The translations under genes were made by a program, and so were the position numbers. From positions 1 through 33,306 of the IMG/VR virus record IMGVR_UViG_3300030376_000340: DNA of 33,306 nucleotides; one strand, 5' to 3'. Below are positions 16,146-23,140 of this stretch, in pieces. The DNA is from a virus (taxonomy: Duplodnaviria > Caudoviricetes). The notes beneath the pieces are model-generated. The model was not told the origin of the DNA. It did no database searches and was given only the letters and a program-made list of their open reading frames with translations. Numbering within the stretch: the stretch's first letter is position 1; each line of letters begins with the position of its first letter.

Positions 16146-16532
16146 CTAGTCTAGGTCTATGGAGATACTAACATTTCCGTGGTGAGAATGTTGTACCTTG
16201 TCAGGAGCTTTCATGCCGATTCTATCTAGTAGATCCTTTGATGCTTCTAGTCTAACATACTCAGACTTACCATTTTGTATAAGGTGTAGTAATGTTGAGG
16301 ATGCGTGGACAGAACCTAGTCCTAACTTGTTGGATACTTCTTGTTGAAGGTATGCCTGTACCTTTGGCAATCGTAGTGTCCTACTAGCTACTACTCTACC
16401 AGCTTCTCCCTTAGAATAACCAGCCTTCTGTGATGCTTCGGTTATGGTGCAACCTGTGGCTACGAGGGTATCAACCAAAGCTCTTTGTTTGTATGTCAGT
16501 CCGTCTTTCTTTGATAACTGTGTTCTTGCCAT
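16146..16532 (-). CDS. terS: Terminase small subunit
   Basis: N-terminal HTH 'LTYKQRALV...ITEASQKAGYS' and C-terminal 'VRLEASKDLLDRIG'. Confidence 0.85.
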   Translation of the reverse strand: MARTQLSKKDGLTYKQRALVDTLVATGCTITEASQKAGYSKGEAGRVVASRTLRLPKVQAYLQQEVSNKLGLGSVHASSTLLHLIQNGKSEYVRLEASKDLLDRIGMKAPDKVQHSHHGNVSISIDLD

Positions 16533-16568
16533 TTACGATAGATACCAAGTGATTCGTAACCATGTCAA
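16533..16568 (-). promoter_or_regulatory. Putative sigma70 promoter giving a leaderless terS transcript
   Basis: TTGACA (16568-16563), N18, TATCTA, N6, ATG; no SD upstream. Confidence 0.5.
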
Positions 16569-16690
16569 GTAAAAAATTGTAAATAAATATTGACCTATGA
16601 CTTATGTATTACCTCAGTCGGCTATGGCGATAACCTCCTTCGTATCCTCTATATCTCATACAGACACAGGCAACCCAATATTTATTTTTA

Positions 16691-16877
16691 TCTCTCTCGA
16701 ATATGCTCTATTCGTCTGTATCAGCTATGTACTCACATCAGCAATCTACACAGACGAACTACCACGATATACAACCTGTAAACATGCACACTTAGTCCAG
16801 CACGAAGTTGTGCGACTAAGTTCTAGCATGTCGACAGAACGATATATCTGTGGTGACGAGTAGGCATATTCAGAGAT
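16691..16877 (+). ncRNA. Candidate structured RNA leader before the first early gene
   Basis: Nested helices: 16693-16716/16855-16876, 16761-16771/16843-16854, 16782-16787/16826-16831, 16790-16797/16814-16821. Confidence 0.55.
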
Positions 16878-16892
16878 CGAAAGGAGATCATC

Positions 16893-17135
16893 ATGAAATA
16901 CAACTCATACACTATCATGTCGAAGGTAGCAGAAACTATCAAAGACACACTAGAAGATAAATATCAAATGGACTTTTGGTATAATGACAGGACCTTGGAT
17001 GACAAGGATATAGAAGGAGTAATAGTATCAGAAGGTGGATCTAGGGATTCATGGGGAATCACCATAGAAACAGAGGATGATGAAGGTAAGGAGTATACTA
17101 TGGATATAGGAATAAGAATGAAGGAGATCAAATAA
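16893..17135 (+). CDS. Acidic early protein
   Basis: 80 aa, AAGGAG RBS, D/E-rich. Confidence 0.75.
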   Translation: MKYNSYTIMSKVAETIKDTLEDKYQMDFWYNDRTLDDKDIEGVIVSEGGSRDSWGITIETEDDEGKEYTMDIGIRMKEIK

Positions 17136-17305
17136 TGGATTATCAAGATGAGATTAACAAATACATTGACCTAGCAAAACTAGCAGAACTCAATGGAGAT
17201 CTAGAAACAGCTGAAGCATACAGAGCAGAAGCACAATGGGTATCAAAGCAAATGGATGACTATGATATCACAGAACTAAATACTGATTTGGAGGTAGTAA
17301 AATGA
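17135..17305 (+). CDS. 56-aa acidic early protein (MDYQDEINKYIDLAKLAELNGDLETAEAYR...)
   Basis: Hand-translated; AAGGAG RBS, TAATG and ATGA overlaps. Confidence 0.75.
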   Translation: MDYQDEINKYIDLAKLAELNGDLETAEAYRAEAQWVSKQMDDYDITELNTDLEVVK

Positions 17306-17817
17306 CTGAATGGAAAGTAGAAACTAAAGAACTATTATTTATAAATGATGCAGCTAAACAGGATATGAATGAAGTATTCGACTTACTGTATCCAATAAAA
17401 GGCACAGAGTTTATGCAAGGATGGTGTAAAGACAGTATCATGTATGAATGTCTAGGTGCTAGAACAGGCATGAACAATGCCAGTAGCAGAGCAGATCAAG
17501 CTAAAAGAGCATTGACTAAGGCAAAAGATGATCGTGTAGATACTGTAACAGAGATTGGTCAACAACAAGACTATGACAGAGTAGCAACATTCAGAGGATG
17601 GTCAGATCTAGCAGACTATTGGACTAACAGATACGACACCTGGTCAGCTAAATTTGAGATATTATATGGTGAAACATGGGAAAAGGCTTTGGAAAACAAG
17701 AACAAAAACAAGGCAACACCATCTACACTAAGACAACCAACAGATGAAGAGCATGAAGAATTTGCAGAAAGTATTCTAAATGCAGACATCAACACATTGG
17801 TGGGTGAGGGGATATAA
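17302..17817 (+). CDS. Hypothetical early protein
   Basis: 171 aa, GGAGGT RBS. Confidence 0.8.
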   Translation: MTEWKVETKELLFINDAAKQDMNEVFDLLYPIKGTEFMQGWCKDSIMYECLGARTGMNNASSRADQAKRALTKAKDDRVDTVTEIGQQQDYDRVATFRGWSDLADYWTNRYDTWSAKFEILYGETWEKALENKNKNKATPSTLRQPTDEEHEEFAESILNADINTLVGEGI

Positions 17818-17904
17818 TCCCCCCCCAACAGGAAGGATTCTGGTATCACCGAATGATATTAATTTTAATTATAGCAGTATACATAATGTATAAAGGAGGC
17901 AACT

Positions 17905-18219: not shown

Positions 18220-18348
18220 ATGGAAACATTACTTATGATACTAGGAATAATAGTACTATCTTTAATGTGTATATCATTTCTCGGTAGTATAACAGCAACA
18301 TTCTTATTCTATCGTGCAATAACACAGGAAGATAAGCAGTCTGAATAG
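18220..18348 (+). CDS. 42-aa membrane microprotein (METLLMILGIIVLSLMCISFLGSITATFLFYRAITQEDKQSE)
   Basis: Hand-translated; starts immediately after the previous stop. Confidence 0.65.
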   Translation: METLLMILGIIVLSLMCISFLGSITATFLFYRAITQEDKQSE

Positions 18349-18411
18349 ACTGCTGGTGATAGGAGGTATCACCGAATCCGACATTTTGACTTTTTTAAAA
18401 AGGAGAAACAA

Positions 18412-18642
18412 ATGACTAGACTACCACTACCACAAGATAGCTTCACACAAGATGAACTAGATAGATTTGATGTTATCTATACAAAATACTATGAGCATTG
18501 TAATAATTATCAAGACTTAGAAAACAAATGTGTAGAGCATATGCTACATGATGGAATGAAACTAATCTATACACAAGAAGTCAGAGAGATGGTTAGAGAA
18601 AGGTTTGATTATGATCTCAACAGAGAACCAAACATTCAGTAA
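18412..18642 (+). CDS. Hypothetical protein
   Basis: 76 aa, AAGGAG RBS. Confidence 0.75.
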   Translation: MTRLPLPQDSFTQDELDRFDVIYTKYYEHCNNYQDLENKCVEHMLHDGMKLIYTQEVREMVRERFDYDLNREPNIQ

Positions 18643-18823
18643 GTGTATCAGATGTCTAGGACTTGGATTAATAATAGATTGGAATAATCCAGAGAGTTCA
18701 GATGAATGTGATATGTGTAATGGAACAGGAGGTACTAATGAATACAGAAGGATTAAAAATATTAAAGGCAAGATTGTGGGATCAAAGACTAACCACAAGA
18801 GATGCAATAAAATATCACGGTGA
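18611..18823 (+). CDS. Small DnaJ-type zinc-finger protein
   Basis: Two CxxCxGxG motifs (CIRCLGLG, CDMCNGTG); ATG at 18611. Confidence 0.6.
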   Translation: MISTENQTFSKCIRCLGLGLIIDWNNPESSDECDMCNGTGGTNEYRRIKNIKGKIVGSKTNHKRCNKISR

Positions 18824-18977
18824 ATCAACTGCACTTAGTCAGTTAGATGATTTGTTTCTAATAGAAAATGAAATATTAGAGGAGTTTGAATCACTCAGAG
18901 ATAAACTAACTAAGGACATCAAGACTGTAGAAGATTGGCTTAAACAGTTAAATGAGTTTAGATTTGAAACCAGATAG
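18738..18977 (+). CDS. Hypothetical coiled-coil protein
   Basis: AGGAGGT RBS before ATG 18738 (MNTEGLK...). Confidence 0.7.
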   Translation: MNTEGLKILKARLWDQRLTTRDAIKYHGESTALSQLDDLFLIENEILEEFESLRDKLTKDIKTVEDWLKQLNEFRFETR

Positions 18978-18987
18978 GAGGTAAATC

Positions 18988-19293
18988 ATGCGAAGCATAA
19001 GACCAGGACATTACCAAGCAACTATATCTTATGGTCAAGATCAAGTGATCGTAGTTAATATTGTTAAGATAAAGTCTAACTTTCAACACAGTATTACTAA
19101 ATGGAGATTGACTGTTGATGATAGTGTACTAGGTCCACAACATAAAACTGATTGGGATACCAAACAGATGGCTATGGAAACAGGAAGAAAAGAAGTAGAG
19201 AACCTTATGTTCAAAGCTTTAGAACTGAGGATTATCAAGGGTTTTCAGTTACCCAAAAATTATTATGGAAAGGAAAAACTACATGAAGTGTAA
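18988..19293 (+). CDS. Hypothetical protein
   Basis: 101 aa, AGGAGGT RBS. Confidence 0.75.
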   Translation: MRSIRPGHYQATISYGQDQVIVVNIVKIKSNFQHSITKWRLTVDDSVLGPQHKTDWDTKQMAMETGRKEVENLMFKALELRIIKGFQLPKNYYGKEKLHEV

Positions 19294-19492
19294 TGCAGAA
19301 ACATTTAAAGATCTAATGTGTAAGGTAAATAGAATATCACCAGGTGCAGAGGTAAAGTTTGCATCAAAAGTATATCATGGAACTAGAGAAGAAGGTGAGT
19401 TCAAAGAACATGAGTTCAAAAAAATAAATAGTATTCTAATTGAGTTTGAAACTTACTCAGGTAGAGATGAGATAATTATAACAGTTGAATAG
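19265..19492 (+). CDS. Hypothetical protein
   Basis: 75-aa ORF; start may be the second Met, which follows AAGGA. Confidence 0.6.
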   Translation: MERKNYMKCNAETFKDLMCKVNRISPGAEVKFASKVYHGTREEGEFKEHEFKKINSILIEFETYSGRDEIIITVE

Positions 19493-19493
19493 T

Positions 19494-19664
19494 ATGAAAA
19501 ACTATAGAGTTGTATTATCTTGGAATGTACAAAAAACTTATTTTGTGAATGCAAAAGATAGTGAAGAAGCAAATGACAAAGCAATACATGGTGGAGGACT
19601 TGATGAAAGTTATGATTCATATGAGTTTGATGACTATATTGAAACAGTAGAGGAGGATGAATAA
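19494..19664 (+). CDS. 56-aa acidic protein with 'V.A.DSEEA..KA' motif (DpnD/PcfM-like pattern)
   Basis: Hand-translated MKNYRVVLSWNVQKTYFVNAKDSEEANDKAI...EEDE; TAATG overlap with the next gene. Confidence 0.65.
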   Translation: MKNYRVVLSWNVQKTYFVNAKDSEEANDKAIHGGGLDESYDSYEFDDYIETVEEDE

Positions 19665-20458
19665 TGCTACCAACAGAACTAATGTTTGAGGTTCGTGAAG
19701 AACCTGTATACAACCAACATGGCTCAAGGCTAGATGGCTACAAGCAGTTGGTTAAAGATGATAACAACGAACTGATTGCAGTTCATAAGAATACATATCG
19801 AGTTATATCACATGACAAAGCACATATAGAAGCACTTGATTTTCTACATGAAAACTTTGATACAAATGGTATGACTGAGCAACATAAGTGGTCTAATCGT
19901 GGTGCTGTTATGGCTACCAGATTTACTTTACCAGAGTATCAAATACCATTCAAAGATACATCCATTGGTCTAGAAGCTGTAGTGTGGAACAGCTATAATG
20001 GTATGCGTTCATTCAGATTTGATCTAGGTTTCTACCTATTTCTATGTCTTAATGGACTAAAGAATTCAGTATGGGATATCAGTTTGAATACAGCACACAA
20101 AGGTAGTAATGAAATTAAACTAAAATTACCTGGTTTGTATTCCGCTATGGATGGACTACATACTGTACATAACTGCATGGAAAACTGGATTGCAGAAGAT
20201 GTAAACTATGGTGAGTTCAGTTATGAAGTAGATAAGCTATGCTTACAACCTACAAGGAATGATAAAAGCCATGTAAATCAACAACATAAAAGGTACATAC
20301 AAGATCAATATGATCAGAACTATGCTAAAGAATTTGGTGAAAACAAGTTTAGTGCATACCAAGCTATCACACATTGGAGTACACACTACCCAAGTGATTC
20401 AGTTAATACTAGATATGATCGTGAAAGAAAGGTTGCAAACTGTCAGTGGTTTCACTAA
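19664..20458 (+). CDS. DUF932-family phage protein
   Basis: 'Y.VISH', 'NSYNG', 'CLNG', 'H' and 'AYQAITHWSTH' motifs; GAGGAGG RBS. Confidence 0.75.
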   Translation: MLPTELMFEVREEPVYNQHGSRLDGYKQLVKDDNNELIAVHKNTYRVISHDKAHIEALDFLHENFDTNGMTEQHKWSNRGAVMATRFTLPEYQIPFKDTSIGLEAVVWNSYNGMRSFRFDLGFYLFLCLNGLKNSVWDISLNTAHKGSNEIKLKLPGLYSAMDGLHTVHNCMENWIAEDVNYGEFSYEVDKLCLQPTRNDKSHVNQQHKRYIQDQYDQNYAKEFGENKFSAYQAITHWSTHYPSDSVNTRYDRERKVANCQWFH

Positions 20459-20467
20459 AACAGAATA

Positions 20468-20521
20468 GAGGGCAATCAAACTTCATAGTATATGATCTCC
20501 TTCCTCCGCATGGTTGCCCTC
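20468..20521 (+). ncRNA. Hairpin with an anti-Shine-Dalgarno loop (candidate antisense sRNA)
   Basis: Stem GAGGGCAATC/GGTTGCCCTC; loop contains ATGATCTCCTTCCTCC. Confidence 0.5.
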
Positions 20522-20535
20522 AATACATAAACATT

Positions 20536-20697
20536 ATGGGAAAAAAAAGAGGTGTAGTACCTAAACATATGCTAGTATTAGAAAGATGTTTAGTCTGTAA
20601 TAAAAAATGGACTAAAGCTATGATGATAGACTACAGAGAATACACATGTATAAAGTGTTACAACAGGAGGAGTAATGAAAAAAATAAACCCCATTGA
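20536..20697 (+). CDS. Small zinc-finger protein
   Basis: CLVC...CIKC; likely ATG at 20536. Confidence 0.6.
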   Translation: MGKKRGVVPKHMLVLERCLVCNKKWTKAMMIDYREYTCIKCYNRRSNEKNKPH

Positions 20698-20890
20698 TCC
20701 AGGCTATTATATTGGACCAGCGATTCAAGTTATAGATGTTATAGAACAATTTAAATTAAATCATCACGAAGCAAACATTATCAAGTATGTAATAAGAAAC
20801 AGACATAAGTACCCTGATAAACCAACACAAGATTTAAAGAAAGCTCGTTGGTATATAGATAGGTTAATAAATCAATATGAAAGTAAATGA
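20675..20890 (+). CDS. DUF3310 (SaV-like) protein
   Basis: 'IDP.YY...IQVID.I...NIIKY..R...K...QDLKKARWYI'. Confidence 0.85.
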   Translation: MKKINPIDPGYYIGPAIQVIDVIEQFKLNHHEANIIKYVIRNRHKYPDKPTQDLKKARWYIDRLINQYESK

Positions 20891-21203
20891 TCTAGTCAAA
20901 GGGTTTGTAAGAGATAAAAGATTAAAACCAAATAAAAAACAAAAGTATAATCTTGCAGATCCAGTACAAAGAAAAAGATGGTGGATAAAAAAAGTATGTT
21001 ATTTAGCTAGAGTTTGGTTTGATCGTGAGATAGAATACAAACTAAGAGTAGGTTTAATAGACGGAGATCCATCTGCTAAGAGATTAGCTGATGCACTATG
21101 GAAGAAAAAAACTGATATTGAAAACATTGTAGAGAGGAAGGTCAATGAATATAAACAATCAAAAGAAAGTTATAGACAGAAGCTCAGGGATCGGAGGGAG
21201 TGA
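20877..21203 (+). CDS. Basic hypothetical protein
   Basis: 108-aa ORF overlapping both neighbours. Confidence 0.6.
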   Translation: MKVNDLVKGFVRDKRLKPNKKQKYNLADPVQRKRWWIKKVCYLARVWFDREIEYKLRVGLIDGDPSAKRLADALWKKKTDIENIVERKVNEYKQSKESYRQKLRDRRE

Positions 21204-22263: not shown

Positions 22264-22666
22264 TAAAGTAATACTTGTAGGCAGAACTGGTACAGATCCA
22301 GAAATTAAAACTATCAAGTCAGGTGAGATGGCTATTATGTCTATCGCTACAACTGAGAAAGTAACAGATAAAGAAACTCAACAAAAGAAAGATAAAACTA
22401 CTTGGCATAAAGTAGTAACATTTGATCCTAATCTTTCTAAGACTATCAAAGATTATGTAACTAAAGGTACTCTATTATATCTAGAAGGTCAGATAGATGT
22501 ATCACAATACACTGATAGTAGTGGTAATAAGAAATATAATACATCAATTCTAATACCAAGATTCTCTGGTGTTATGAAGATGTTAGGTGGTAAGAATGAT
22601 AAGTCTGTAGAATCAGTCAATCATGATGCCTTACCAGATGATGATATTCCTGACATACCATTTTAG
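22256..22666 (+). CDS. ssb: Single-stranded DNA-binding protein
   Basis: 'INKVILVGR.G.DPE', 'TTWH.V', acidic tail DDIPDIPF. Confidence 0.95.
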   Translation: MINKVILVGRTGTDPEIKTIKSGEMAIMSIATTEKVTDKETQQKKDKTTWHKVVTFDPNLSKTIKDYVTKGTLLYLEGQIDVSQYTDSSGNKKYNTSILIPRFSGVMKMLGGKNDKSVESVNHDALPDDDIPDIPF

Positions 22667-23100
22667 TTTCCATATGGAACTGTGTAGGAAAGACATAAGG
22701 TAGTAAGCGTAAAGCTAAAGCTGGTGGCTACACGCCTACACAGTAAAGTTTCGTGATACTGAATAGCTATCAGTATCGGCTGACTGAATAACGTCTATAC
22801 AGAGGCGTAAGGTACACTAGAGATGAAGTATGGGCAAATGCCTGAGATAATCAAAGGTGGTTGTAAGTAGGTAAATGATGAATGTATATCTGTAGCTGAA
22901 AGCATGAGGGTAATAACACTAATCCCTCGCCCTTGGCGAATTTAAGAACGATTAATACAGGCGTTATATCCTAGTTAAAGCGTGTGTTGGTCAGCTTCTG
23001 AAAGATTACTAGAGGCATCGAGTTGGAGCAAATATATGGTTGGTGAGAAAGGACGAAGCATAAGGTCATCCTGGAAAATCCATTAAATCATTCCAGGTAC
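22667..23100 (+). ncRNA. Candidate large structured non-coding RNA (~430 nt); strand inferred
   Basis: Largest ORF-free gap, GC-richer than its surroundings, many short and long-range helices with G-U pairs on the + strand. Confidence 0.65.
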
Positions 23101-23105
23101 ATGAA

Positions 23106-23140
23106 TTGACATGTTATAAACAAAGCCATATATATACTAC
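23106..23140 (+). promoter_or_regulatory. Putative sigma70 promoter giving a leaderless transcript
   Basis: TTGACA, N17, TATATA, N6, ATG(23141); no SD. Confidence 0.55.

Follow-up and report, generated by a model that had tools for sequence, protein, structure and literature searches.

A conserved hairpin behind the DUF932 gene of marine pelagiphage-like viruses, with a loop predicted to pair with ribosome-binding sites of early genes

Phages make RNAs in which an exposed loop pairs with a ribosome-binding site, the CI RNA of P4 among them. A second such RNA is the c4 antisense RNA of P1 and P7, a loop of which pairs with the ribosome-binding region of a phage mRNA and blocks its translation, as described in the part of a review used here (PMC12197685). 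On the bacterial side, the alphaproteobacterial small RNAs cuckoo, CcsR and alpha-r14 (NfeR1) carry anti-Shine-Dalgarno (anti-SD) loops on hairpins (PMC4615179, PMC8034643), and the second of these papers adds that RNase E releases CcsR RNAs by cutting them out of the 3' UTR of a small DUF gene. A similar pairing is described for the icaR mRNA of Staphylococcus aureus, in which a downstream C/U-rich anti-SD motif in the 3'-UTR pairs with the upstream SD of its own transcription unit; whether it does so in cis or in trans is left open in the portion of that source we draw on (PMC3868564).

In this study, we analysed a 33,306-nt stretch of viral DNA (the window) in which a hairpin at 20468-20521 had been proposed, on inspection of the letters, to carry a loop complementary to the ribosome-binding sites of two early genes. 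We find that the hairpin is a real, previously undescribed structured RNA element. No Rfam family, the c4, CI and cuckoo models included, matched 20468-20521 up to E = 5 and none matched at gathering score in 14 related loci, and the literature searched held no description of it; for PMC10690425 that search covered four supplement files, which are without loop or stem words, and the alignment archives and PDFs of that paper, which lay outside the search, may contain it.

The window is a near-complete 33.3-kb virus genome of 32.7% G+C that looks like a marine, pelagiphage-like podovirus: its minus strand carries podovirus structural genes, and small genes run rightward in a block that includes DUF932, DUF3310, YqaJ, an exonuclease/Rad52-like gene and SSB. 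Among isolates, Pelagibacter phage EXVC031P Hodr stands closest (capsid 60%, terminase 65%), from which we infer that a SAR11 host is likely. Two terminase relatives (63-64%) found in one Gammaproteobacteria MAG of GTDB were left out of the host assignment; the GTDB genomes yielded no relative of DUF932, and a DUF932 homologue is absent from 50,697 isolated-phage records. Scans recognised no integrase, repressor or antirepressor among 52 ORFs, and no tRNA or tmRNA. Throughout, genes are called early or first according to where they stand in the gene order past the divergent gap at 16532-16893.

A conserved plus-strand RNA structure behind DUF932

The DUF932 (PF06067) gene occupies 19664-20458 on the plus strand, and the hairpin lies in its 3' flank wherever a locus has one. 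In the window, the 5' arm of the stem begins 9 nt past the DUF932 stop codon (20468-20478, plus strand) and pairs with a 3' arm at 20511-20521. The original prediction drew a 10-bp stem of GAGGGCAATC (20468-20477) and GGTTGCCCTC (20512-20521), which we recover and extend to 11 bp by A20478-U20511; it also drew a 16-nt loop, which was wrong, as the enclosed loop is 32 nt long (20479-20510). The 5' half of this loop (20482-20495) contains UUCAU, the complement of AUG-AA, and a weak inner hairpin (20483-20487/20491-20495; -1.3 kcal/mol) whose own 3-nt loop is a triplet that varies between genomes. The core at 20493-20508 is invariant among the variants of the window's class (class A, defined below) and combines the anti-SD CUCCUU (20497-20502) with CCUCC (20503-20507), the latter predicted to be unpaired (0.96). 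A fold of 20456-20530 gave z = -3.24 on the plus strand, with 0 of 200 shuffles as stable, and z = -0.40 on the minus strand; a wider window of 121 nt gave z = -1.10 only. Long-stem hairpins with CCTCC or CTCCT in the loop are represented by this single example in the window and by none in each of 10 shuffled windows. Folds over the ranges of two relatives (L016 and L025), which clip the hairpin, were disregarded. We considered and rejected an intrinsic terminator, given loops of 19-45 nt, no U tract on the plus strand and absence from the calls of the terminator scan.

Scans anchored on DUF932 recovered 80 IMG/VR loci that contain the 3' end of the gene, down to 41% identity (six without the 3' end were dropped). 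Together with the window, the hairpin stands 5-9 nt past the DUF932 stop in 73 of 81 loci, which fall into classes A (33, including the window), B (36), C (2) and D (2), and the eight loci without it are all at 41-45% identity. The class A pattern recovered 29 viral contigs, all already among the known loci, and in metagenomes its match lay behind a DUF932 end in 17 of 17 contigs, some of which overlap with IMG/VR records. A further scan anchored on YqaJ added one class A-like contig with no upstream DNA and two distant loci, leaving the picture of the hairpin unchanged. The hairpin is absent from the 15 kb of Hodr and the 16.8 kb of Lederberg examined. Contigs of relatives assembled from RNA runs span the hairpin and, as contigs, carry no ends, strand or level.

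Base pairing in the stem is maintained as its letters change. In 26 distinct hairpins the stem pairs comprise 256 Watson-Crick, 25 G·U on the plus strand, 3 U·U and no A·C, and alignment on the GGG/CCC of the stem gives four columns with at least two Watson-Crick types. Among 12 class A variants, 97.7% of stem cells are paired and one column has changed on both sides. CCUCC is present in all 25 distinct loops and, in folds that covered classes A, B and C, is predicted to be unpaired wherever the stem forms. The hairpin is thus a plus-strand RNA structure under selection.

These patterns also bear on a reading in which the hairpin would be no RNA regulator at all, being either a minus-strand ribosome-binding site that serves a short antisense ORF or part of the coding sequence of ORF 20446-20697, the two alternatives that the original prediction had itself raised. 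Both fail, and we regard the reading as highly improbable, even though the minus strand of the window does spell an SD, a 10-nt spacer, an ATG and a 25-codon ORF, and all 15 class A variants leave the plus frame open across the hairpin. The 25 non-canonical pairs of the stem are all G·U on the plus strand and none on the minus; the minus ORF, compared over classes A, B and C, is erratic in length: some loci have 25-26 codons, the L050 group has 2 and others 7-9, and B1, B3 and C lack an ATG. As for coding on the plus strand, there is no in-frame start ahead of the hairpin in L050, L051, L054 and L055, and the loop core is without synonymous change in 12 variants, against 79 of 120 amino-acid-invariant DUF932 codons that show it. 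The likely true start of ORF 20446-20697 is 20536, which leaves a small CxxC...CxxC (zinc-finger-like) gene at 20536-20697 on the plus strand that starts 15 nt past the stem and has a GGAGG of its own in many relatives. A stimulator of stop-codon readthrough or frameshifting was considered, since the stem starts 5-9 nt past a stop, and rejected: the downstream frame relative to DUF932 varies within class A (0 or -1) and class B loop lengths differ by single bases.

Other RNA structures were seen in these genomes. The class D loci (L079, 8212-8261, plus strand, and L078) have a second hairpin some 2.3-2.4 kb past DUF932, of 13 bp and with CCTCC in a large loop, and a 60-nt long-stem hairpin with a CTCCT loop lies on the plus strand about 2.7 kb behind DUF932 in L005, L007, L008, L010, L021, L041 and L042, the ends of its stem being compensated between the L005 type and L021. 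In the hairpin-less relatives (L076, L077, L080-L083, L085 and L086), arrays of other stem-loop modules fill the first 100-600 nt past the DUF932 stop and end in a strong hairpin with an A-run, followed by an HTH-like gene; the five arrays tested had no Rfam match at gathering score. The window itself has a row of structured RNA modules behind SSB (22660-23140, plus strand), several beginning with AGTTT, one of which gives a full-length manA-like match at 22757-22936 (34.5 bits, below gathering score; E 1.7e-5). In class A relatives this manA-like module (77-97% identity) lies behind SSB; class B has it about 1 kb ahead of the DUF932 end, just upstream of the gene, and in the relatives at 41-45% identity it follows DUF932 directly, so that RNA modules are shuffled between sites.

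Complementarity of the loop to genes 1 and 2

Read backwards, the class A loop spells an SD, a spacer, ATG and AA(G/A), and in the window its reverse complement is SD-spacer-ATG-AAG. One predicted target is the SD, spacer and start codon (16881-16897, plus strand) of the first rightward gene (16893-17135) and the other is the SD and spacer (17120-17137, plus strand) of the second (17135-17305); neither gene has a PHROG or Pfam family above cut-off. As originally reported, 16881-16891 is matched exactly by the reverse complement of 20492-20502, and 17120-17130 by that of 20493-20503, and we find that these two 11-nt complements are the sole loop matches of at least 11 nt on either strand of the window. 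AAGGAG occurs at 21 further sites in the window, its ATCA continuation only at the gene 1 and gene 2 sites. By duplex energy over 51 gene starts in the window, first place goes to gene 2 and fourth to gene 1; once local structure is taken into account, gene 2 keeps its place and gene 1 falls to a weak -8.4 kcal/mol. Judged on the window alone the 11-nt match is modest evidence, and the relatives give stronger support.

Of 16 distinct class A genomes, 13 have gene 1 or gene 2 as their best early target. When the anti-SD core was held fixed and the 5' half of the loop was shuffled, with p <= 0.05 counted as a win, the real 5' half beat its shuffles on gene 1 in 16 and on gene 2 in 12 of 18 class A genomes. 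A controlled run, in which the non-SD half added pairing at gene 1 in 12/14, at gene 2 in 9/15 and at gene 3 in 0/13 genomes, and at 9/102 other upstream and 9/71 downstream starts, bears out the claim that complementarity extends beyond the SD and limits it to genes 1 and 2 in the window's lineage. The predicted duplex with gene 1 spans the SD, the spacer and the AUG over about 17-19 bp in L033, L057, L121 and L126. The fit to gene 2 is lineage-specific, with 11 of 187 non-cognate phage pairs beating shuffles, and AGGAGATCA occurs at 7 of 12 class A gene 2 sites versus 1 of 15 class B sites. Gene 1 is less distinctive: class A loops also beat shuffles on the non-cognate gene 1 of class B and C phages in 81 of 154 pairs, because AGGAGAT is common there in both groups (class A 7/11, class B/C 9/12), so part of the gene 1 fit reflects a shared strong start site. 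None of 15 class B and C genomes has gene 1 or gene 2 as its best target; gene 1 comes in at rank 4-11 of 8-11 (it is possibly misassigned in L031 and L075), and no single conserved phage target emerged among the starts of classes B, C and D.

Covariation between loop and leader gives a mixed picture. The original prediction stressed that both matches run into a shared ATCA spacer, which is true in the window, but class A relatives have ATCA at only 2 of 11 gene 1 and 7 of 12 gene 2 sites. Its expectation that loop and spacer would change together is likewise borne out in part: some changes of the loop triplet track gene 1, but several class A genomes have lost ATCA with no change in the loop core, the altered spacer being that of gene 1 in L037 and L038 and that of gene 2 in L050, L051 and L054. 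In L054, L055, L015 and L035 the triplet that follows UCAU matches the bases that precede the AUG of gene 1, and a tree of 21 rows places these changes on separate branches. Over 18 related genomes, Watson-Crick matches between triplet and gene 1 leader number 18 of 36 versus 12.0 expected (p = 0.0075). The signal weakens to p = 0.06 when the test is restricted to the 11 distinct combinations, and to p = 0.07-0.11 when G·U pairs are included; these, like all our p-values, are optimistic because the genomes are related and mosaic. The loop changes AAT and ATT break pairing, and the inner hairpin also explains both the invariant UCAU (TCAT) and the change in L054. The loop/leader covariation is only suggestive.

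Other starts near the hairpin were compared in the same way. Pairing with the start of DUF932 itself found no support, there being no cognate advantage (p_all 0.82), and the start of the downstream zinc-finger-like gene gave none either (p_all 0.38). The YqaJ start fits at class level only (p_all < 0.001, p_within 0.86). Its SD variant (window 21130-21147, plus strand) follows loop class, with GAGGAAGG in A and B1 and GAGGAG in B2, and it is possible that YqaJ is a third target or that the pattern reflects shared ancestry.

Possible functions of the hairpin

On these pairing models, the open loop of the conserved plus-strand hairpin likely base-pairs with ribosome-binding sites, and we would put at about even the chances that, in class A, it acts as an antisense brake on translation of the first two early genes. 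By this mechanism, the unpaired CUCCUUCCUCC stretch would nucleate on the SD, the weak inner hairpin would open, pairing would spread over the spacer and AUG (11-19 bp), and loading of 30S subunits on genes 1 and 2 would be blocked once transcription passes DUF932. Because the hairpin is transcribed about 3.6 kb after its targets, the arrangement could serve as a delay switch. By consensus scan, the plus strand from 18507 to 20922 is free of promoter-like sites, and no terminator-like site separates gene 1 from the hairpin; the hairpin therefore probably belongs to, or is cut from, a longer early mRNA, and one long mRNA that folds back on itself fits as well as action in trans. Elsewhere in the region, the divergent gap ahead of gene 1 (16540-16890) is mosaic, its blocks being common to class A and class B phages regardless of hairpin class, and no clear sigma-70 promoter was found in it. 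Short stable hairpins without U tracts stand on the plus strand at the end of gene 3 (17801-17827) and in the gap before 18412 (18336-18375), and are possible processing or pause sites.

A wider proposal, which we put forward tentatively, is that a lytic marine phage family times the shut-off of its first genes by a retargetable hairpin and no protein regulator, keeping the anti-SD loop fixed behind DUF932 and re-tuning the rest in each lineage to the spacer and start codon of selected genes. If so, transcription 3.6 kb downstream would stop the translation of genes at the genome's front end. We know of no described mechanism by which small lytic phages of streamlined marine bacteria shut off their earliest genes, and a hairpin of 54 nt for which targets are named and natural variants of loop and leader exist offers a cheap handle on RNA-only control of early genes.

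Part of the evidence would also suit a generic anti-SD small RNA of the cuckoo/CcsR type, cut from the mRNA and damping many SD-led phage or host messages, with the fit to genes 1 and 2 a by-product of mirroring a strong start site. CCUCC is the only feature common to all classes, classes B-D have no conserved phage target, and both the non-cognate fits to gene 1 (81/154 pairs) and the class-level fit to the YqaJ start would be expected of such an RNA. Most class B-D loci also have a U-rich stretch of the AG(A/U)UU type ahead of the stem, in keeping with the release of CcsR RNAs from the 3' UTR by RNase E at AU-rich sites, as given in the part of that study used here (PMC8034643), and the relatives at 41-45% identity carry other structured RNA modules in the same slot. 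We nevertheless think this explanation unlikely, as it leaves unaccounted for both the contrast between gene 3 (0/13) and genes 1 and 2 (12/14 and 9/15) and the class A-specific AGGAGATCA at gene 2.

Given that the stem begins 5-9 nt past the DUF932 stop, the hairpin could instead act locally in cis, as a switch that ties the zinc-finger-like gene to translation of DUF932: opened by a ribosome at the stop codon or by a long duplex, the stem would let CCUCC, in the loop or the 3' arm, fold onto the downstream SD. In models, the competing fold does win in class A genomes with a downstream GGAGG (stem probability 0.00-0.31 in L050, L057, L064, L065 and L069, in short context), and masking the 5' arm closes the downstream SD of class C, from 0.70 to 0.13. 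The window's subgroup and most of class B, however, keep the loop without that downstream SD and have a stem probability of about 1, there is no covariation with the downstream or DUF932 start (p_all 0.38 and 0.82), and a switch of this kind does not require the anti-spacer and anti-AUG half of the loop, all of which makes it quite improbable. Less probable still is a hairpin with no mRNA partner, serving in processing or stability or as a protein-binding decoy that imitates the 3' tail of 16S rRNA. Its strong stem at a fixed position in the 3' flank would suit such a role, and the C/U-rich loop presumably resembles the anti-SD tail of 16S; but a loop of 19-45 nt with an invariant CCUCC is more than a stability hairpin calls for, and the specificity for genes 1 and 2 would go unexplained.

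Comparison with described anti-SD RNAs

By analogy, the hairpin would work like cuckoo/CcsR, P1 c4 and icaR, as far as the parts of the sources cited above describe them, and it is a member of none. With cuckoo/CcsR it shares a variable stem and a conserved anti-SD loop, as well as a place in the 3' flank of a DUF gene, and the phage host is probably alphaproteobacterial. It differs from them in having one hairpin, in the window and at the site in relatives, where cuckoo/CcsR have 2-4 adjacent ones, and in its dimensions, the class A hairpin being 54 nt with a 32-nt loop against family limits of 24-50 and 9-27. The loop motif given there, CCUCCUCCC, occurs in 0 of 25 distinct loops here, in a comparison made on the motif itself; CCUCCUCC occurs in 8 and CCUCC in 25. 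The element is phage-borne, its flanking gene is DUF932 rather than DUF1127, and, unlike the cuckoo/CcsR loops, the phage loop reaches the spacer and AUG.

The likeness to c4 of P1 and P7 lies in a complement to a ribosome-binding region that is exposed in a loop, which for this hairpin is a prediction. As the review portrays it, c4 is a processed RNA with multiple stems, in contrast to one simple hairpin here, and it targets the ant (antirepressor) operon in the immunity region of temperate phages, whereas the predicted targets here are first early genes without a recognised family. With icaR the hairpin shares a downstream C/U-rich motif facing an upstream SD, here on the same strand and, by consensus scan, with no terminator-like site between the two. 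The icaR motif, as described in that source, pairs with the SD of its own gene; here the DUF932 start has no cognate advantage (p_all 0.82), the best partners are genes 3.3-3.6 kb upstream, and the motif is presented in the loop of a hairpin. Altogether, the hairpin would, by its predicted function, count as a form of anti-SD antisense regulation.
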